Source of the DNA: Bacilli bacterium | Lineage (GTDB): Bacteria > Bacillota_I > Bacilli_A > RF39 > UBA660 | Direction of reading: 5' to 3' | DNA: 64,000 nucleotides | Assembly (NCBI GenBank): GCA_017433415.1 | Contig: JAFRHI010000016.1 | Location: 2,684-66,683, forward strand | Shown here: piece by piece, positions 46,849-58,361 of the stretch | How the letters are laid out: the number at the start of each line of letters is the position of its first letter | Position numbering within the stretch: the first letter of the stretch is position 1 | Position numbers and translations under genes: made by a program | The notes under the pieces: generated by a model | The model's input: the letters and a program-made list of their open reading frames with translations, nothing else | Databases searched by the model: none | Told to the model about the DNA's origin: nothing

Positions 46849-48846
46849 CTATTTTTCTTTTTTGGCTCCAGTATACTCCCAACCATTGTCTAGCAATTCT
46901 CTATTGTTGTAATAACTCCATGTTGTCTTTGTTGTGCCTTCTTCAATAATACTTCTATTTTTTGTACTTTGATAACATACATCTCCATATAATGGTTCAT
47001 CACGTGTAGCTTTTTCAGTTACCGTAATTGTTCCATAAATTGGAATTGTTTTTATTGTATATTCACCACAACTTGCATATCCTGTACTTGATGAAGATGA
47101 AGGTATTGTTGTAGTTGAGGAAACAGTTGATAAACCGCCAACATATGTATATGAATCATAATAATAATTTGGTAATGTCTCACATGTCTCACTACAATAA
47201 CTATAATCTGCACCTACAAATTTATAGTGTGTAGTATTAGTATCTCGTGGTGGATTAGAATAGCTTGCTCTACCATTATATCGCCAATTTCCTGTTGTTG
47301 CTGCAGTTGATCCAGATATATCATTTATTTTTACATAACTTGATGTTGTAGCATAAATCTTTTTATTTATTTCAATATAGTTGTATTTTGAACAAGATTT
47401 TTGTTGATAGAATCCTGTTTGCTCTATAACTTCTCTTGTTCTTGTATATGTTTTCTTATGATCACCAATTTTTTCTTTACGTTTATATAATTGCAATTTT
47501 CTTAGACATGATGGATTTTCATCAGAACAGTTTATTTCTTTTGTAGAACAACTTGTTTTTGACCAATCACTCCAACTTGTCCAGTTTGAATATATACTGT
47601 CTGTTGTTTTCTTATATTCATAAACATATTCTACTTTAATGCACTCTTTTTTATATTCTGTCTCTGTTACTACAGAACCATCTTTACCATAATATTTACC
47701 ATTATATTTTTCACAATAGTGTTTTGATTCTGGTTTTGTACACTCTTTTTTATATTGTGTCTCTGATACTACTGAGCCATCTTTACCATAATATTTACCA
47801 TTGTATTTTTCACAATAGTGTTTTTCATCTATTGTAATACATTGTTTTTTATATTCTTTTAGAGTTACAATCTCACCATTTTTACCATAATAATTGCCAT
47901 TGTGTTTTTTACAATAATATTTTGATTCTTGTTTTATACATTGTCTTTTATATTCTGTCTTATCAACAACATTTCCATTTTTACCATAATATATACCACT
48001 CTTTACTCTACACTTTAATGTCTCAGTAGGTGTTGGTTTTGATGGTGTTGTTTTACTAGGTTTTTTTGATGGAACATATTCTCCATCATGGATTGATCCT
48101 TTTATTGGAACAGTTGATGTTACTTCATCACTTCGTGTTACTGTAGCAGCTTGTTCTTTTTGACATATATATGAATCACAATATGTATAACATCCTAAAT
48201 GTACAAGAATATAATCTTCTTTTTCACTATCTTTTATATTTACTTTTAAGATATATTCATCATCTACTTTAGTAATTTTTACATAGCTTTTCTCTACATC
48301 ACAAGCTTTATTATTTTTATCAATAAGTGGTACTATTATCTTTTTACCAATCATATCACTTAATGTCATTTTATCTGATTGTCCAACTTCTTGTGGTAAT
48401 CTTTCATCAGTGTAGTATGATATAGCTGCTTCCTTCATTTTATCGATATTATTAGAAAAAATTTGTGATGAAATTGCTTTTAAAGCATCTTCGTTTTCAG
48501 CAGATTCACTAGTTGTTTTAGTTGTTTCTTTCTTATTTTTCTTTTTTGATGTAGTTTTATTTTTCTTTGTTGTTTTATCTTTTGACTTTGATTTAATTAC
48601 TTTTTCATTCTTTTTCTCAGTTTTATTATTGTTTTTATCCGAACCTTTTGACTTTTGCTTGTTTATAACTAAACCATTACTTATCTTGTTACTATTTTTA
48701 TTTGTATTTCCTTTAAAGGCTGGAATTACAAATCTTGTCAATAACCAAAAAAGTAGCAACAAAAAAAGTATAGTTAGAATAAGCTTGATTAAAAATCTTC
48801 TGATTGGAAATCCACGTCGTTCATATTCTTCTGTATACATATTCAA
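46849..48846 (-). CDS. bitopic membrane protein with Lys-rich linker and four or five Cys-containing ~30-aa YYGK(D/N)G repeats
   Basis: Repeats of the form (H/Y)YC(E/K)K(Y/H)NG(K/N)YYGK(D/N)G(S/E)VV.E..YKK(E/Q)C.K. Sits 11 bp downstream of the previous gene. Confidence 0.45.
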   Translation of the reverse strand: MNMYTEEYERRGFPIRRFLIKLILTILFLLLLFWLLTRFVIPAFKGNTNKNSNKISNGLVINKQKSKGSDKNNNKTEKKNEKVIKSKSKDKTTKKNKTTSKKKNKKETTKTTSESAENEDALKAISSQIFSNNIDKMKEAAISYYTDERLPQEVGQSDKMTLSDMIGKKIIVPLIDKNNKACDVEKSYVKITKVDDEYILKVNIKDSEKEDYILVHLGCYTYCDSYICQKEQAATVTRSDEVTSTVPIKGSIHDGEYVPSKKPSKTTPSKPTPTETLKCRVKSGIYYGKNGNVVDKTEYKRQCIKQESKYYCKKHNGNYYGKNGEIVTLKEYKKQCITIDEKHYCEKYNGKYYGKDGSVVSETQYKKECTKPESKHYCEKYNGKYYGKDGSVVTETEYKKECIKVEYVYEYKKTTDSIYSNWTSWSDWSKTSCSTKEINCSDENPSCLRKLQLYKRKEKIGDHKKTYTRTREVIEQTGFYQQKSCSKYNYIEINKKIYATTSSYVKINDISGSTAATTGNWRYNGRASYSNPPRDTNTTHYKFVGADYSYCSETCETLPNYYYDSYTYVGGLSTVSSTTTIPSSSSSTGYASCGEYTIKTIPIYGTITVTEKATRDEPLYGDVCYQSTKNRSIIEEGTTKTTWSYYNNRELLDNGWEYTGAKKEK

Positions 48847-52379: not shown

Positions 52380-52452
52380 AGTTATTCCCCTTTGTCGTAA
52401 TAAATATACTTAAATTAAATTATTTTGTCAAATAAAAAAGCGATTAACGCCT

Positions 52453-52644
52453 TTACATTGTTTTTCCTATCAAAGTTATATATACGCATCCGCCTTTATT
52501 AGTATGACAATTCTCAGCTAGCGTACCTTCTACTGTTAATGTTGATGTATATCCAGCGTAAGCTATACTTAATCCTACTACTGATAATAGTAAAGCAACA
52601 ATTGCTATTATTTTAAATCCTCTATCTTTATTATTTTTTTCCAT
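52453..52644 (-). CDS. 63-aa truncated paralog of the TasA/camelysin-like protein at 56852-57460 (SipW-type signal peptide plus a 27-aa tail with two Cys)
   Basis: The first ~36 aa and underlying DNA are near-identical to 57370-57460. The tail is TLAENCHTNKGGCVYITLIGKTM. Confidence 0.4.
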   Translation of the reverse strand: MEKNNKDRGFKIIAIVALLLSVVGLSIAYAGYTSTLTVEGTLAENCHTNKGGCVYITLIGKTM

Positions 52645-52845
52645 AAATTTTCCGCCTATTATTTTTATTTATACATTATTTATTACTTTTGAAAATATAT
52701 ACTCTTAATCACTCTCCTAAATAGTTTTGTAGATATCTTCACCCTAAAATACAATTATATTACAACCGCGTTTTCTTGTAAATAAGTTATTTTGTATTTA
52801 TAAATATTTTACAAAAAAATAAAAGGTACTTGACGTACCTTAATT

Positions 52846-54525
52846 TTAACTTAACACATACCAGTAATTTCCTGATTCTCCGTTACTAGGATATTGTGAT
52901 GAATTAGTACTATATAAATTACCATAACTAGTATCACCTTTAGCATATCTGATATTTGATACTTTATAAATATCACAAGTAATGTAAGCTACAAGAGTTA
53001 CTCTACTTCCTGTTATGACACAATAATATTGTGTAGATGTTGTAGGGCTTCCTGAAGTAGTCCAAGATCCTGTTTTTATTGAATTACTATTAGATGCAAA
53101 GACATAAACATCATGGTCAGGTAATGTATTACTGATACTAGATTTCATTCCTTGAGTAAAAATTAGTTCTTGACTTGTTATATCTGCTATTTCATTTAAT
53201 TTGGCTCTTTCGTGATACCAGAAATATGAATTAGCAACAATTCCACCACTTGTAGCATTAGTTGCAGTTAATGTTTCATCGAAAACAATTTTCTTGTTAA
53301 ATTTACCCCAGGTATAGACCCAACCAGCATAAAGAGTAATATTGTCATTAAATGTTACAATATCAGTTGCTAGATACTGAGATATTCTTCTACCCTCACC
53401 ATAACCATTATTTAGATAGTGAGAATACAATCCATTATCATCATATCCAAAAGCGTTATATAAGTCACTATAAGTATCAGCATAATAATATAACGGATCT
53501 GTTTTATAACTAACGGAACTATTATATGTTGATGGATTGTCAGCAAACCAACCAATAAATGTAGCATTGGCTTTGGTTGGAGTTGGTAATTCTCCCATTG
53601 CTTGTCCGTTTCTAACCATTTTACTAGCTGGATTAACCGTTCCACCATTAGCATTAAAGTTTACTATTAATATTTTATCAAGAGTTACATTAATTGTATG
53701 ATTCTGAGATGGCATTGTAAGACTTCCTGTCTCTTGATAATAATTGTTTTTTGTAACGGAATAGGTTACAGAATCAGTCTCCATGACACTAACTGTTAAA
53801 GTACCAGTTCCTGAGTAATTACCTTCGCTTGTGTGAATAGAGATACTTGCGTCATTTGGAGTAGCATTAATCGTTAAATCATAATAATGCAGTAATGAGT
53901 ATTGAAAATCGGCTTTTATTCTTGTCGAATCATCGGAACCATTACAGTTGTTTTTCACTCGTACATGAACTGTTTTGGTAGAATGTGGTGCAATAGATGT
54001 TTGATTTGGTACAACATCAATAAATTCAACATCTACTTTATTACTCGTATTACCAGATCCATCTAGTATTGAGACAACACTAGTATTCGTAATATAAGCT
54101 CTATGAGGCGTTGTGTTTACAATATCAAGTTCATATGTTACATAACCATTACATGTTTGGGCTATAACTGTAGCGTTTAACTCATGATCCATAAATGCAT
54201 AATTAACATTTGAGGCACTACTAGAACCACTAATTCTCGCACTAGTTATATAAACATAATCAAATATATGCGATTGATAGGTTGCAATTCCTTGGGTGCT
54301 CAGAGATGATGTTAAAGCTGAAAATGCTAAACCTGTAAAGATAAATAATAATAACCAAAAAGCAACGACCATCTTTGGTAAATTATTTGGTGCTTTATTT
54401 TTACTATGTAACTTGTCTTGTATAACATTATCAAAATATATATTATTATCACTACTTATCTTAGGTTTTTTCTTTGTGACTTTTTTTGTACTTGTTTTTT
54501 TCTTCTTAGTTTTACCCTTTTCCAT
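52846..54525 (-). CDS. large secreted protein with SipW-cognate-like signal peptide and a Listeria/Bacteroides (Flg_new) repeat
   Basis: K-rich N-terminus, TM, then GLAFSALTSSLSTQG similar to the SIAYAGFTSTLTVEG of the neighbours. The Flg_new-like segment is VNFNANGGTVNP...GELPTPTKANATFIGWF. Confidence 0.5.
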   Translation of the reverse strand: MEKGKTKKKKTSTKKVTKKKPKISSDNNIYFDNVIQDKLHSKNKAPNNLPKMVVAFWLLLFIFTGLAFSALTSSLSTQGIATYQSHIFDYVYITSARISGSSSASNVNYAFMDHELNATVIAQTCNGYVTYELDIVNTTPHRAYITNTSVVSILDGSGNTSNKVDVEFIDVVPNQTSIAPHSTKTVHVRVKNNCNGSDDSTRIKADFQYSLLHYYDLTINATPNDASISIHTSEGNYSGTGTLTVSVMETDSVTYSVTKNNYYQETGSLTMPSQNHTINVTLDKILIVNFNANGGTVNPASKMVRNGQAMGELPTPTKANATFIGWFADNPSTYNSSVSYKTDPLYYYADTYSDLYNAFGYDDNGLYSHYLNNGYGEGRRISQYLATDIVTFNDNITLYAGWVYTWGKFNKKIVFDETLTATNATSGGIVANSYFWYHERAKLNEIADITSQELIFTQGMKSSISNTLPDHDVYVFASNSNSIKTGSWTTSGSPTTSTQYYCVITGSRVTLVAYITCDIYKVSNIRYAKGDTSYGNLYSTNSSQYPSNGESGNYWYVLS

Positions 54526-54590
54526 CTCTAATCACCTTCTCTCTTTTACAATTTTCTTACTAAAAAACCATTATGGAATATCCATAATGT

Positions 54591-55658
54591 TTATTTAGTC
54601 TTTTTATTATCATTTGAATTTACCGATAATATATATTTATATATAAAATTATCTTTTATAATAATAAATTCACTTTTATTGTTTTTCCGTATCTCTTTAA
54701 AGAGAATTGGATTTCCAATATTATCATGAATATCTTTTAATTCATTAAATGATTCAACATCAACAATTTCATATTCTTTTTCATCGATATGATGATTAAC
54801 ATTCGCAATTATCAAATCATACTCTCTTAAAATCTTTTTTAGTTTTTTCTTATATTCACCAACTTTACTATAATCATTAAGACCTAGTGTTTTTACTGCT
54901 TTGAGCATGGCGAATACTGTTACCAACATTGAAAAAAACGCAATTATAAAGTATTTAATGTTTCGTAAGAATAGATTCTTGTTTTCTTTTAAAATGTTAT
55001 ATGAACTTGCTGGTGTATCAGTAATTTGAACATCTATTGTTTGTTCTGTAAGAGGAATTACTAGTTCTGGAGCATCAGCTATATTTATCTCTTTATCTCC
55101 ATCTTTTGCTTTAGCATTTACATGCAAAACAATAGATACATCACTTACAGAATTTAAATCAAATGATGTTTTAAACTCTGCTATCAATGAGTTGTAATCA
55201 TTATAGTCAACTTTTAAATTTTCATTAATTAAAATATTATTTTTATTTTTTTCTTCTACTTTCTTTTCTTCTACTAAAACTTCGTTTTTCTGATATAATA
55301 CTGAAGTTTTAGTTACATCCCCATACACCTTAGTAGTTGCATCTATATAGTATGTATAATCATAATCCAAGGATTTTGAGGCTTCTATTTTATAATTGAT
55401 ATCTGTATCTATATAATCAATTAAAGAGGCAATATACTTCATATTCTTATCTAATACATTATTTTCATAATATGAATTTTCTTTTAGATGAACTTTATAA
55501 TCAATATTTGAAGATGAATTAACACTTACACCAGTTTCATCATTTAAAATACCCATAACGAGAAATTTAATAGACAAAAACAAACCTAAAACAAGTATTA
55601 GGAGCCAAATAATTATTTTTTTTGGTCTTATAACTTTTTTTGTTTTATCGTCTGTCAC
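54591..55658 (-). CDS. 2-TM membrane protein of unknown function in the SipW locus
   Basis: ORF with an N-terminal TM and a second TM near residue 270. Confidence 0.4.
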   Translation of the reverse strand: MTDDKTKKVIRPKKIIIWLLILVLGLFLSIKFLVMGILNDETGVSVNSSSNIDYKVHLKENSYYENNVLDKNMKYIASLIDYIDTDINYKIEASKSLDYDYTYYIDATTKVYGDVTKTSVLYQKNEVLVEEKKVEEKNKNNILINENLKVDYNDYNSLIAEFKTSFDLNSVSDVSIVLHVNAKAKDGDKEINIADAPELVIPLTEQTIDVQITDTPASSYNILKENKNLFLRNIKYFIIAFFSMLVTVFAMLKAVKTLGLNDYSKVGEYKKKLKKILREYDLIIANVNHHIDEKEYEIVDVESFNELKDIHDNIGNPILFKEIRKNNKSEFIIIKDNFIYKYILSVNSNDNKKTK

Positions 55659-55673
55659 ATTGTCACCTCATTT

Positions 55674-56816
55674 CTATCTATAGTTATTTAATAATACGGT
55701 AGGATATCCAATATATTTAATCTTATATTTTACTATACCAACCACTTGATCAGATAATACTAATAATTGATCTGAACTATCGTTGTTATCACCTTTAGTC
55801 TCATATAAAGTAGTTTTACCAGAATTGATTACTTTTATGATTCTATGGCATACAACTATATTTTCTTTTTTATATGCAATAACGTCTCCTTCATTAAAAT
55901 GTAAAAAATCACGTTCTGCTGTCTTATCAACAATTACGATATCACCAATATTAATATTTGGCTGCATTGATCCTGTCGCAATAACAAAAACCTGATACCG
56001 GAACAAACCGCTGACAAAGTAAATCATTATTAAACAAAATAAAATAATATTAATTCTAAAGAGATTTAATAGTTTTTTCTTTTCAATAATTACTATTTTT
56101 TTAGGATTTATTTTATCTATCTTGTGATATAACCACAAGAAAACAAGTATTGGTATTGTAATCCTTAGTACGGAATCTATATAATTACCAAACTTGGGAA
56201 AGATTGGTAAAATATATAATGGTAATTCCATAAAGAAACGGAATATAATGCTTGATTTATATCCTGCTTTAATTGATAAATAAGTTACTAATATATTTGT
56301 TGCCACTAAAGGCAATATAAATAAACCTAGTTGTTCTATTAAGTTCATTGCTTCATACGCAGATGATGAAACAATTCCACTAATAATGATTGTATTATTT
56401 ATAAGGGTAAATGCAATAAACGATAACACTATTAGTGTTTTATAGTTCTTCGCTCTTGTATTTATTACATATCTTAAAACCTCACACGCTATAATATTTA
56501 TTATAACTGGAAAGGTATTTAGAAATATTGTTTTTATTTCTGTATTGTAGATATTTTTTGTAAAACCAATGAAATATCCTATAATATAGATTACTAAGTA
56601 ATAAAATATTAAATAGGCCGTGATCGAAAGGACAACGTCCTTTTCGATCAGGCTTTTATTCTTTTCATATCCTAATTGCCATATTGCTATTCCTAATAAT
56701 AGTATGGTTACAAGGAATAAAGTATATCCATTTAATATTTTAAAAAAGATATTTACTATTGATAATATTATAATTAAACTTAATATTCCTATTACAAGAA
56801 AATCATTCTTTTTCAT
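55674..56816 (-). CDS. sipW: SipW-type (ER/archaeal-type) signal peptidase I fused in frame to an N-terminal polytopic membrane domain of ~250 aa
   Basis: C-terminal 120 aa ATGSMQPNINIGDIVIV...GDVIAY...VCHRII...TKGDNNDSSD aligns with B. subtilis SipW (SGSMEP...GDVITF...VTHRIV...TKGDNN). No stop codon separates it from the upstream 7-8 TM region. Confidence 0.65.
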   Translation of the reverse strand: MKKNDFLVIGILSLIIILSIVNIFFKILNGYTLFLVTILLLGIAIWQLGYEKNKSLIEKDVVLSITAYLIFYYLVIYIIGYFIGFTKNIYNTEIKTIFLNTFPVIINIIACEVLRYVINTRAKNYKTLIVLSFIAFTLINNTIIISGIVSSSAYEAMNLIEQLGLFILPLVATNILVTYLSIKAGYKSSIIFRFFMELPLYILPIFPKFGNYIDSVLRITIPILVFLWLYHKIDKINPKKIVIIEKKKLLNLFRINIILFCLIMIYFVSGLFRYQVFVIATGSMQPNINIGDIVIVDKTAERDFLHFNEGDVIAYKKENIVVCHRIIKVINSGKTTLYETKGDNNDSSDQLLVLSDQVVGIVKYKIKYIGYPTVLLNNYR

Positions 56817-56851
56817 TGTAATTTATCCTTTTTTATTTCTATTTTTTATTC

Positions 56852-57460
56852 TTAAGAAGCTGCTGCTTGATCATATGTAAATGAAGTTGTACTTAATGTG
56901 ATAGCAACATCACCACTGATTTCTGCAGCATCACCAGCAGCATATGTTAATACCATTGTAACAGCCTTTTCTCCACTAGCATTTAGTGGTAAAGTTAGAC
57001 CTGTTGTACCAGATGTAACAGCAGTTCCGCCATAAGTAAATGCTACAGATAATTTTTGACATAACGCAGTTGCTTCTGCTTGAGTAGCAGCACTTCCTGT
57101 TGCAGGTGCACAAGAAAGGCTTCCTAATGTAACGCCTGACAATGTAGCGTTGATGTCTCCATCATTTTTAACTTTCCAAGTATAAGTAATTGTATCTCCA
57201 GGAGCTTTTACAGTTCCCATAAATCCTGAGATTGATTGATCTCCTGTTTGAATTGCAAGTGTCTTTCCTGTAACATTTGCATATCCTGTTGGAGTACCTC
57301 CATCTAAGTCAATCCATTTAATTTTCCATGCTGATGCAGCTGTAGCTGTACCTTCTACTGTTAATGTAGAAGTAAATCCAGCGTAGGCAATACTTAAACC
57401 TACTACTGAGAATAACAATGCAGCGATTGCTATTATTTTAAATCCTCTATCTTTTTCCAT
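56852..57460 (-). CDS. TasA/camelysin-like secreted protein with SipW-cognate class signal peptide
   Basis: RGFKIIAIAALLFSVVGLSIAYAGFTSTLTVEG (cf. TasA/CalY LIGGGTFAYFND), then a Gly/Thr/Ala-rich beta-type domain. Confidence 0.55.
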   Translation of the reverse strand: MEKDRGFKIIAIAALLFSVVGLSIAYAGFTSTLTVEGTATAASAWKIKWIDLDGGTPTGYANVTGKTLAIQTGDQSISGFMGTVKAPGDTITYTWKVKNDGDINATLSGVTLGSLSCAPATGSAATQAEATALCQKLSVAFTYGGTAVTSGTTGLTLPLNASGEKAVTMVLTYAAGDAAEISGDVAITLSTTSFTYDQAAAS

Positions 57461-57620
57461 ATTTTTTCCTCCTATTTTCTATAAAAATTTGTTTGTAGTT
57501 GTACTCTACATTTACCCTACATTACAATTATATATTATGTATATATCCATTTCAACTACATTTTTCTATGTTGTCAATTACTTTACACTGAAAATTAAAA
57601 AGATTAATTTCTTAATCTTT

Positions 57621-58289
57621 TTAGTTAACTGAACTATAAGCTATTGTAATATCTCCAAACTCAACATCAAACGGACCATCGGCTGTATCGCCACCAGCTA
57701 AATATTCAATTGTTACTATTATCTCTTCTGAAGATCCCACGGCTACTGAATGTCCAGTTATTGCTGCAACTGATTGTGTATATAAAGTTCCGCTTAATGA
57801 TACTGTAACGCGAATATCGTCACAAGCAGCTTGGACTAGTGTGTTGTTTGCAGCATTAGGTCCAGTTGTCTCTTTTGGCGTACATACACGCGGTTCATTT
57901 TTACCTGATACATTGGCATAAGCAATAGATTTTAAATATGCTGTATATTGTCCGGTGTTTTTAGTATAAAAAGTGTACTGTGCTTTTTGATTTGGTTCAG
58001 TAAATACAGCATGTAAATCTTTTATTATTAAACTATTACTATTTGTGTCAATTGTTGCATTTGTAGCAGTTGCTCCAGTACCAGTTACTGTAGGATTTAC
58101 TGGATCTGTTGATACAACATCATCTCTTGTAGAAAAAATAACATTAAAATCTGTTCCAGCCGGATTTACTTCAGCACTTGATTTAATGGTTAGGGTTTGT
58201 TCAAAAGCAGCAAAGCCAATAGATAATCCTAATACTGCTACAAAAAGTGCAACTATACTTAGTGTTTTTACTTGTTTTTCCTTATTCAT
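57621..58289 (-). CDS. second TasA/camelysin-like secreted protein with SipW-cognate signal peptide
   Basis: MNKEKQVKTLSIVALFVAVLGLSIGFAAFEQTLTIK. The start was trimmed to the Met that follows GGAG. Confidence 0.5.
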   Translation of the reverse strand: MNKEKQVKTLSIVALFVAVLGLSIGFAAFEQTLTIKSSAEVNPAGTDFNVIFSTRDDVVSTDPVNPTVTGTGATATNATIDTNSNSLIIKDLHAVFTEPNQKAQYTFYTKNTGQYTAYLKSIAYANVSGKNEPRVCTPKETTGPNAANNTLVQAACDDIRVTVSLSGTLYTQSVAAITGHSVAVGSSEEIIVTIEYLAGGDTADGPFDVEFGDITIAYSSVN

Positions 58290-58361
58290 TATTCCACTCC
58301 ATTCTCTATCAATATAAGTATAACATACTATCAAAATTTTTAGTAATTTATTTTTTTGACT

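Follow-up and report, generated by a model that had tools for sequence, protein, structure and literature searches.

In an uncultured, gut-type member of the Bacilli with very low GC content, we traced a locus that probably codes for a fibre of the TasA superfamily (AbpX-like), exposed at the surface or extracellular, and for a private machinery that processes it. The locus occupies positions 52453-58334, on the minus strand, of a 64,000-nucleotide (nt) stretch (hereafter, the window) that covers positions 2,684 to 66,683 of contig JAFRHI010000016.1 in the metagenome-assembled genome (MAG) GCA_017433415.1. It consists of six co-directional open reading frames (ORFs) coding for proteins of 237, 202, 380, 355, 559 and 63 amino acids (aa), all of which had been delineated in an initial annotation of this DNA and are present, with the same boundaries, in the ORF list of the window. 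The central proposal of that annotation, a dedicated SipW/Sec11-type signal peptidase encoded along with several paralogous substrates, is borne out by family hidden Markov models (HMMs), by synteny in at least 12 loci, by profile-profile comparison and by the literature. On sequence evidence, the locus belongs with the AbpX/Tafi-type loci described in 2025-2026 in archaea and Clostridia, of which it is a divergent new member rather than a new system. The new elements are the lineage, the divergent, non-acidic subunits and, for the polytopic peptidase family, its size and its pattern of conservation. In the NCBI annotation, the 380-aa protein is labelled 'signal peptidase I', the 559-aa protein 'InlB B-repeat-containing protein', and the products of the other genes of the locus 'hypothetical protein'. 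Thus, the initial description of the locus as uncharacterised is valid for the host organism, but not for the polytopic peptidase, which has already been noted in one sentence of a January 2026 preprint (bioRxiv 10.64898/2026.01.04.697558).

A signal peptidase domain fused to a polytopic membrane domain

The 380-aa protein ends in a SipW-like catalytic domain, as initially annotated: residues 254-377 match TIGR02228 with 83.2 bits, well above the cut-off of 51.85, and the protein also passes the threshold of Pfam Peptidase_S26 (29 bits vs 22.9), while failing that of the SipW equivalog model NF046067 (90 bits vs a cut-off of 190). Ser283 of the GSMQP motif, His324 of CHRI, and Asp343 and Asp349 of TKGDNNxxxD are invariant in 35 aligned homologues, down to 35% identity; the active site is of the Ser/His type, with no Lys. 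A Foldseek search with the model of the complete 380-aa protein retrieved human SEC11C (E 1.5e-5) and SEC11A (E 1.1e-4), and SEC11C was also the best match in an hmmsearch against the Protein Data Bank (PDB; 2.5e-17).

Upstream of this domain, in the same frame and with no stop codon, the protein contains eight helices (~235 aa) followed by an anchor helix, in agreement with the membrane helices that had been read from the sequence at the outset. In the AlphaFold2 (AF2) model (predicted local distance difference test, pLDDT, 80.5; predicted template modelling score 0.73; pLDDT of the membrane domain 80-94), the helices span residues 3-25, 30-48, 58-83, 94-122, 126-150, 156-183, 186-202, 211-235 and 246-268, and are followed by the beta-rich peptidase domain. 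The charges of the loops fit a predicted topology in which the N-terminus is inside, the chain crosses the membrane nine times and the catalytic domain lies outside; in particular, a KK/KKK-rich loop that precedes the anchor helix places the peptidase domain outside the membrane.

The fusion is real and not a sequencing artefact, because the same architecture is kept in hundreds of homologues. Among the matches listed for the complete protein, 120 of 120 are full-length (~375-385 aa, ~99% coverage), down to 38% identity, and a search with the first 250 residues alone yields at least 574 clusters at 50% identity, nearly all of which are 370-390 aa long and fused to the peptidase. This conservation rules out a sequencing error or frameshift as the source of the fusion. 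The two halves can nevertheless be separate, as indicated by a few homologues of 230-250 aa.

Two further homologues depart from the common layout. In one Clostridia MAG (L034, 5204-6180), separate ORFs with a 37-nt overlap encode a membrane domain of 234 aa and a peptidase domain of 102 aa, either a natural split of the fusion or a frameshift. An 812-aa protein (P0192) combines the membrane domain and the start of the peptidase with ~500 aa that resemble a metallophosphoesterase or 5'-nucleotidase (HNHEFD and GHSH motifs), and may be a chimeric assembly or a different fusion. An internal start at Met263 (MIYFVSGLF), from which a stand-alone SipW might be produced, had also been raised as a possibility; no Shine-Dalgarno sequence precedes this codon, which argues against it.

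Putative fibre subunits with a common signal and strand region

Four proteins of the locus share an N-terminal region that combines a signal helix with a downstream strand (arrows mark the predicted cleavage sites): LSIAYA↓GFTSTLTVEG in the 202-aa protein, LSIAYA↓GYTSTLTVEG in the 63-aa protein, LSIGFA↓AFEQTLTIKS in the 237-aa protein and GLAFS↓ALTSSLSTQG in the 559-aa protein. This likeness was part of the initial annotation, and a motif scan combined with the family HMM, run over the complete 64-kb window, shows that it is specific to the locus: among the genuine genes, only these ORFs were picked out. The first ORF more likely starts at ATG 58289, giving a protein of 222 rather than 237 aa, because this codon is preceded by the Shine-Dalgarno sequence GGAGTGG, the counterpart in a 90%-identical contig (L001) is a 221-aa gene, and a length of 222 aa is also found in public gene calls. 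With 27% identity (E 1e-12), the 202-aa and 237-aa proteins are paralogues. The predicted cleavage sites, AYA↓G in the 202-aa protein, SIGFA↓AFEQTLTIK in the 222-aa protein and AFS↓A in the 559-aa protein, are all of the A-x-A type that is typical of signal peptidase I.

The 202-aa protein, whose gene is preceded by a strong AGGAGG Shine-Dalgarno sequence, is predicted to begin with a signal peptide that spans residues 1-27; next come an amphipathic donor strand, GFTSTLTVEGTATAA, and a beta-sandwich with a PGD...N-G-x-I-x-A motif and a conserved pair of cysteines, Cys117 and Cys135. The AF2 model of the monomer (pLDDT 86) includes a helix at 4-29, a disordered segment at 29-41 and the beta-sandwich with pLDDT >90; the BsaA and AbpX monomers before strand exchange fit the same description, with a signal helix, a disordered strand and a sandwich. 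When this model was compared with the PDB, the TasA fibre 8aur ranked second, a weak match (E 1.4e-2, TM-score ~0.3). There are 59 homologues of the 202-aa protein, all unannotated, and the 222-aa protein has no Pfam or NCBIfam match. The predicted mature proteins would start with G-F-T-S-T-L-T-V (202 aa) and A-F-E-Q-T-L-T-I (222 aa), with an aromatic residue at position 2 after the site; the 559-aa protein has Leu, not an aromatic residue, at this position. Ser, Thr, Ala and Gly together make up 40-54% of the window subunits.

The cytoplasmic N-region of the 202-aa protein, M-E-K-D-R-G-F-K (57440-57460), is kept even in homologues with ~30% identity (MEKDRSSK, MEKDRRAR), which is unusual for the N-region of a signal peptide and hints at recognition from the cytoplasmic side. 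The Clostridium subunits differ in this respect, starting with MKKAK.

The subunits belong to an AbpX-like clade

Comparison of the subunit family with the known fibre families gave a consistent picture. No match at E <=1 to PF12389 or NF046066 (TasA/camelysin) was detected for any of the six proteins, and none of the window proteins matched TIGR04088, the SipW-cognate signal (cut-off 19 bits). The subunits encoded beside the homologous fused peptidase of Clostridium rhizosphaerae (GAGYA↓AWTDNLNI) score 18.6 and 15.2 bits with TIGR04088, just under the cut-off. By these HMM tests, the window proteins are members of neither the TasA/camelysin nor the TIGR04088 family.

The Pyrodictium abyssi AbpX sequence, taken from the supplement of bioRxiv 10.64898/2026.01.04.697558, directly matches, in phmmer searches, pilin-like genes that lie beside the fused peptidase in Clostridium and Vallitaleaceae loci, at 1e-8 to 1e-5. 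The profile of the window family (34 sequences) was compared by hhalign with AbpX and its nine direct matches, with a probability of 96.6% (E 5.6e-10, 109 columns), a score to which the hydrophobic signal region contributes part. The same profile reaches a probability of 61.7% (E 7.7e-5) against AbpX alone and 99.4% against the subunits of the Bacilli-MAG loci, which serve as intermediates; against 69 TasA/CalY-type proteins of Bacillaceae loci, it reaches only 40.7% (E 2.9e-4) over 54 columns around PGD...N-G. The profile alignments are collinear: GLTYA↓QWSETLSLS is aligned with GLSIAYA↓GFTSTLTVE, and YPGAE..NFTLENVGTIPA with APGDTITYTWKVKNDGDINA, and one of the two cysteines is also paired. 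By these comparisons, the substrates fall in the AbpX-like clade of the TasA superfamily and not in the TasA/camelysin family proper. The initial assignment to a TasA/camelysin-type fibre locus is thus retained at the level of the superfamily and of the fibre-type locus, and abandoned for TasA/camelysin proper.

The DUF5305 protein, the 559-aa protein and the 63-aa ORF

The gene that begins 16 nt after the peptidase gene encodes a 355-aa protein with a Pfam DUF5305 domain (E 4.1e-16; 59.5 bits vs a cut-off of 29), which was overlooked in the initial annotation. It consists of an N-terminal transmembrane (TM) segment, an extracellular domain, a second TM segment at ~225-247 and a cytoplasmic tail of ~105 aa. 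Searched against PDB sequences, neither the subunits nor the DUF5305 protein found a match. DUF5305 is the domain of TafG of the haloarchaeal Tafi pili, which is encoded beside the signal peptidase TafD and has been proposed to act as an accessory protein (PMC11821415, PMC12337348); an accessory role of DUF5305 has been proposed for AbpX loci as well (bioRxiv 10.64898/2026.01.04.697558).

The 559-aa protein combines a Lys-rich N-region, the signal and donor-strand motif and a putative pilin-like N-domain with a Flg_new domain (InlB B-repeat) that covers residues 288-346; its C-terminal half has no assignment. The Flg_new repeat, which had already been recognized, is above the Pfam cut-off (E 1.1e-8). 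In BLAST comparisons, this protein shares with the subunits only the N-terminal 35 residues (E 0.002), and ~95 N-terminal columns are collinear with the subunit profile, a weak match (P 0.011). It has neither a C-terminal TM segment nor an LPXTG motif, and its gene is conserved in L001. By analogy with the published 'tip protein', with which it fits, it is a probable tip or adhesin subunit.

The 63-aa ORF is a copy of the ribosome-binding site and the first ~42 codons of the 202-aa gene (83% nt identity over 143 nt) that diverges after TVEGT. It is found in other assemblies of the same or a close strain and is missing in the collinear L001, where the gap is ~116 bp vs ~408 bp in the window; the ORF together with ~290 bp thus represents an insertion relative to L001 (window 52380-52850; L001 10971-11088). 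After the donor strand, the ORF continues with 21 unrelated residues, including two Cys, and it has its own promoter-like and terminator-like sites. If made and processed, the product would consist of a 'donor strand only' and could serve to cap a fibre or to nucleate it; a duplication remnant is the simpler explanation.

Related loci in other bacteria

A scan of one genome per species, with the 380-aa protein as the single query, led to the comparison of 12 related loci. The fused form was found in L001, in an Erysipelotrichaceae MAG, in several Bacilli MAGs, in Clostridia MAGs and in a Vallitaleaceae MAG, and also in Clostridium rhizosphaerae, C. prolinivorans and Clostridiales oral taxon 876. 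In all 12 loci, one to three small proteins with a signal helix ending in G-Y/F-A-x-(W/F)-x-x-x-L-x-I adjoin the peptidase, and in 10 of these, BLAST detects a homologue of the 355-aa DUF5305 protein directly downstream of it.

In the Clostridium and Vallitaleaceae loci L003 (5441-11756), L004 and L007 (3775-6092), response regulators of the LuxR type and a ~563-aa histidine kinase are encoded on the flanks of the fused peptidase. These regulators resemble bsaS/bsaR of C. perfringens as well as those described for abpX loci in bacteria; none are present near the window locus.

The collinearity with L001 ends exactly at the 5' end of the locus (window 58327-58334; L001 5501). Upstream of this point, the window carries genes for Ham1, thymidylate kinase and QueC, and L001 carries entirely other genes. 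The locus itself is 85.5% identical to L001 at the nt level, below the downstream housekeeping genes (88-93%). The L001 contig (CAZVUP010000008.1) was deposited as 'uncultured Muribaculaceae bacterium' (Bacteroidota), yet is 85-93% identical at the nt level to the Bacilli MAG, and is probably a mis-binned contig or part of a mislabelled MAG.

Comparison with characterised fibre systems

The closest known relatives are the AbpX loci. AbpX of Pyrodictium abyssi belongs to the TasA superfamily and, with calcium bound, forms polymers by donor-strand complementation, as shown by cryo-electron microscopy (cryo-EM); its homologues occur in Bacillota, with Clostridium amylolyticum and Natronincola peptidivorans as bacterial examples. 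Typical AbpX loci encode, in addition to minor subunits and a tip protein, a DUF5305 accessory protein and a signal peptidase I with ten TM helices (Sleutel et al., bioRxiv 10.64898/2026.01.04.697558). The window locus shares with these loci subunits of ~160-220 aa whose signal ends in ...G-L-x-Y-A↓x-(W/F)-x-x-x-L-x-(L/I/V) and whose beta-sandwich carries a Cys pair along with a PG...N-x-G-x-I-P/x-A motif, paralogous minor subunits and a predicted tip protein, a TIGR02228-type signal peptidase I with many TM helices, and DUF5305. The window peptidase and DUF5305 protein are, moreover, homologous to those of the Clostridium loci whose pilins match AbpX directly. Unlike in the AbpX loci, the subunits in the window show no pairwise similarity to AbpX, lack an acidic residue at strand position 4 and have about half the acidic content; the peptidase has nine predicted TM helices, with none at the C-terminus, rather than the ten reported; and the neighbourhood lacks an LPXTG/SLH anchor, a sortase, a histidine kinase and cyclic di-GMP genes, in a 27% GC host from the uncultured Bacilli.

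The Tafi loci tafA-G (Haloarcula hispanica, Natrinema sp. J7-2) likewise combine donor-strand pilins in a tip/adapter/core arrangement with a dedicated signal peptidase I adjoining DUF5305. TafD is needed genetically for the processing of the Tafi pilins, which assemble by strand donation (PMC11821415, PMC12337348). The Tafi pilins use Tat signals, whereas the N-regions in the window (MEKDRGFK, MNKEKQVK) are of the Sec type, with no RR, and TafD, an archaeal protein, has four TM helices and a second extracellular domain, without the eight-helix N-terminal domain of the bacterial enzyme.

The initial annotation read the locus as a tapA-sipW-tasA analogue; its nearest counterpart is, instead, an AbpX/Tafi-type locus with DUF5305 (TafG). 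Bacillus subtilis tapA-sipW-tasA, B. cereus calY and C. perfringens sipW-bsaABC do share with the window a private signal peptidase of the endoplasmic reticulum (ER) type (Ser/His) that is encoded with its fibre substrates, the exposure of an N-terminal donor strand by cleavage, and the PGD...N-G motif in the beta-sandwich. The characterised members of these systems act in the matrix or in biofilms, and the BsaA fibres of C. perfringens are SipW-dependent. The differences are substantial: Bacillus SipW is a protein of ~190 aa with one or two TM helices, compared to 380 aa and nine predicted TM helices in the window; there is no TapA, with DUF5305 present instead; there is no match to the TasA, camelysin or TIGR04088 HMMs, and the probability against the TasA/CalY profile is low, as given above; and the Asn-Glu-Lys isopeptide triad of BsaA is not evident, the donor strand containing no Asn.

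A model of fibre assembly and its alternatives

Under the scheme that we favour, the pre-subunits (202, 222 and 559 aa) would be exported via Sec and held in the membrane by a signal helix with a long hydrophobic core (~20 residues). The outward-facing Ser/His peptidase domain would then cut after A-x-A (AYA↓G, GFA↓A, AFS↓A), with the DUF5305 protein assisting in the manner of TafG, and would thereby free an amphipathic N-terminal strand, x-Phe-x-x-x-Leu-x-Val/Ile. By completing the beta-sandwich of the next subunit (donor-strand complementation), the freed strand would allow the chain to grow. The 202-aa protein, given its strong Shine-Dalgarno sequence, would be the main building block, with the 222-aa and 559-aa proteins as minor or terminal components. 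The eight-helix domain, which is conserved as part of the enzyme, would most likely serve to dock the unusually long signal helix or to select it for cleavage; the long hydrophobic core of the signal peptides suggests that the extra helices help the enzyme accept a helix that would pass for a membrane anchor with a general signal peptidase.

It could be argued, instead, that the small proteins are secreted or surface monomers, such as adhesins, an S-layer-like coat or mis-named 'camelysin'-type enzymes, with the N-terminal region serving only as a recognition signal. We consider this improbable, although several observations count against a fibre or in favour of monomers. Polymerisation is inferred. 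The beta-sandwich fold is generic, with the Foldseek matches of the 202-aa protein all weak (E >1e-3) and including carbohydrate-binding modules, GAE and appendage domains, and the window proteins also show weak matches to DUF11/DUF7507-type repeats. BsaB, a TasA-family paralogue in C. perfringens, forms only dimers. There is no direct sequence match of the window subunits to AbpX (by phmmer and BLAST), to TasA or to any solved structure, and part of the profile-profile score stems from the hydrophobic signal region. Donor-strand position 4 is Ser (202 aa) or Gln (222 aa), so that the acidic residue that is a hallmark of AbpX is missing; the subunits have pI 4.40 (202 aa) and 4.36 (222 aa), with Asp+Glu at 7.4% and 10.8%, respectively, compared to 14.9% in AbpX. 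Because of the missing acidic residue at position 4 and the lower Asp+Glu content, calcium-triggered assembly may not apply to these non-acidic subunits. Finally, no LPXTG, SLH or sortase anchor protein is encoded in the locus. What tips the balance towards a fibre is that the amphipathic strand downstream of the cleavage site is kept across the paralogues and in distant loci and is disordered in the predicted monomer, as in donor-strand systems; that the subunit profile is related to AbpX, a donor-strand polymer by cryo-EM; and that several paralogues along with a large tip-like protein in a single locus match the published fibre loci. The small proteins also contain no metalloprotease motif.

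A resemblance of the shared N-terminal region to class III (prepilin) leaders had been perceived initially, and in its strongest form would imply that the subunits are type IV pilin-like proteins that depend on a prepilin peptidase for their maturation and on a type IV pilus machinery for their assembly. The likeness is superficial, consisting of a short charged N-region that ends in Arg-Gly-Phe and is followed by a hydrophobic helix, although a type IV pilin is needed for the secretion of BsaC in C. perfringens. Position +5 is not Glu, and Arg-Gly-Phe is kept neither in the 237-aa and 559-aa paralogues nor in the Clostridial relatives (MKKAKVL...). The conserved site, A-x-A, is located at the other end of the helix, and the enzyme encoded alongside is of the signal peptidase I type; the locus contains no gene for a prepilin peptidase, an assembly ATPase or a platform protein. 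Furthermore, the fold after the helix is, in the AF2 model, an all-beta sandwich with its own N-terminal donor strand. The type IV origin thus appears extremely improbable, and we no longer retain the leader resemblance.

The eight-helix membrane domain and the Rce1/CPBP family

The membrane domain has no Pfam match in any of the 121 members, and no solved structure was matched by sequence. Counted over 65 diverse members, the residues Glu112 and Arg115 (65/65 each) form an invariant E-x-x-R motif in helix 4; position 140 in helix 5 is acidic in 55 members and Asn in the window protein. Asn174 is present in 56 of the 65, Arg193 in 51 and Glu/Asp197 in 52, the latter two on helix 7, and Pro204 and Pro207 in 63 and 65, respectively. 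A Foldseek search of the whole 380-aa model against 350,542 PDB chains returned signal peptidases along with small beta-barrels of the chromo and Tudor types. Within the top 50, the CAAX protease Rce1 (4cad, three chains) was the only membrane protein, with a best E of 0.075, a probability of 0.99, 266 aligned columns and a TM-score of 0.50-0.52 normalised by the target.

Rce1 (MmRce1) has eight TM helices with both termini on one side of the membrane; His227 and Asn231 support the catalytic residues Glu140 and His173, and the cavity is closed by Arg145 (PMC12067869). The window domain is likewise modelled as an eight-helix bundle, with termini on the same side, as judged from the loop charges, and its invariant Glu112 and Arg115 on helix 4, along with the conserved polar residues on helices 5 and 7, could correspond to Glu140/Arg145, His173 and His227/Asn231 of Rce1. 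One might therefore regard the membrane domain as a second protease, Rce1/CPBP-like or a catalytically altered derivative thereof, that acts on the same substrates, for example by removing the signal helix once it has been cut off or by keeping it in a cavity that faces outward, next to the peptidase active site. This possibility concerns a single domain and is compatible with the fibre model, but on balance we lean against it. None of the 121 members matched PF02517, even at E <=10. When 14 genuine CPBP proteins, found by means of a synthetic consensus, were aligned and compared with the domain by hhalign, E was 0.034, compared to 0.027-0.23 for reversed-sequence controls, which is not significant. 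The hhalign alignment pairs Arg115 with the Arg of motif 1, Asn140 with the His of motif 2, and Arg193/Glu197 with HxxxN, and was not counted as evidence because the controls score alike. The membrane domain has no conserved His, so that the catalytic dyad of Rce1 is absent. Of the Rce1 motifs EExxxR, FxxxH and HxxxN, only E112-x-x-R115 has a counterpart, with a spacing that differs from E-E-x-x-x-R, and D/E/N140, R193 and E/D197 are candidate equivalent positions for the others. A TM-score of ~0.5 between helical bundles is possible without homology.

A more specific version of the same idea holds that the fusion is a two-site processing machine, in which a diverged Rce1/CPBP-type module has a cavity that opens outward next to the peptidase active site: one site would cut the A-x-A bond, and the Glu112/Arg115 site would capture, measure or degrade the long signal helix. 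We rate this as unlikely. We know of no CPBP protein that is fused to a signal peptidase, and a full-text search of the literature for TasA, signal peptidase and CPBP together found no paper linking them. A motif search detected no CPBP gene in the window or in the related loci.

Features of the locus and its neighbourhood

The features of the locus are listed in Table 1. Terminator-like sites are overrepresented in this region (6 vs 1.4 expected) and border the transcription units; together with the strong Shine-Dalgarno sequence of the 202-aa gene, they count in favour of the proposed reading. Promoter-like sites are not in excess (44 vs 44 in shuffled sequences), so that any one of them is weak evidence of a promoter. 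The GC content of the window is 25-30% throughout. Approximately 4 kb downstream of the locus, on the same (minus) strand at 46849-48846, lies the gene for a 665-aa protein with an N-terminal membrane helix, a Lys/Thr/Asn-rich linker and four repeats of ~33 aa of the type YC(E/K)K(Y/H)NGxYYGK(D/N)GxVVxxxEYKKxC.

Table 1 Coordinates and basis of assignment of the features in and around the putative fibre locus
Feature	Coordinates	Strand	Basis
ORF, 237 aa	58334..57621	-	mechanical ORF, TTG start at 58334
Minor fibre subunit (putative), 222-aa AbpX-like paralogue	57621..58289	-	ATG 58289 start; family HMM 5.5e-59
Promoter-like site TTGAAA-17-TATAAT, upstream of the 202-aa gene	57527..57555	-	consensus scan, 11/12 matches; weak evidence
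Probable major fibre subunit, 202 aa	56852..57460	-	strong Shine-Dalgarno sequence, AF2 model, AbpX-family profile match
ORF, 380 aa	56816..55674	-	membrane domain and signal peptidase I domain
Eight-helix N-terminal membrane domain of the 380-aa protein, residues 1-235	56112..56816	-	AF2
Anchor helix (246-268) plus signal peptidase I domain (ER/archaeal type) of the 380-aa protein	55674..56081	-	TIGR02228
DUF5305 (TafG-like) accessory membrane protein (putative), 355 aa	54591..55658	-	Pfam
Terminator-like hairpin after the DUF5305 gene	54569..54589	-	terminator scan
Multidomain protein, 559 aa, probable tip/adhesin subunit	52846..54525	-	Flg_new, N-terminal profile
Terminator-like hairpin after the 559-aa gene	52823..52841	-	terminator scan
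63-aa ORF, partial duplicate of the 202-aa gene	52453..52644	-	83% nt identity over 143 nt
Terminator-like hairpin after the 63-aa ORF	52436..52454	-	terminator scan

Implications

The locus extends the AbpX/Tafi-type donor-strand fibre systems to uncultured, very low-GC Bacilli and Erysipelotrichaceae-like bacteria of animal-associated metagenomes. The fibres characterised so far are matrix or adhesion structures, which makes this locus a candidate determinant of colonisation or biofilm formation. The polytopic signal peptidase emerges as a large family (at least 574 clusters at 50% identity) whose membrane domain carries an invariant intramembrane Glu-x-x-Arg motif; a single sentence has so far been devoted to this family in the literature. 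Should the two-site version of its function be correct, the fused enzyme would correspond, in one prokaryotic polypeptide chain, to the eukaryotic signal peptidase complex combined with signal-peptide clearance, and would include the first CPBP-like module tied by gene fusion to signal-peptide handling. More generally, the role of the membrane domain bears on the question of how a signal peptidase tells a cleavable signal from a membrane anchor.

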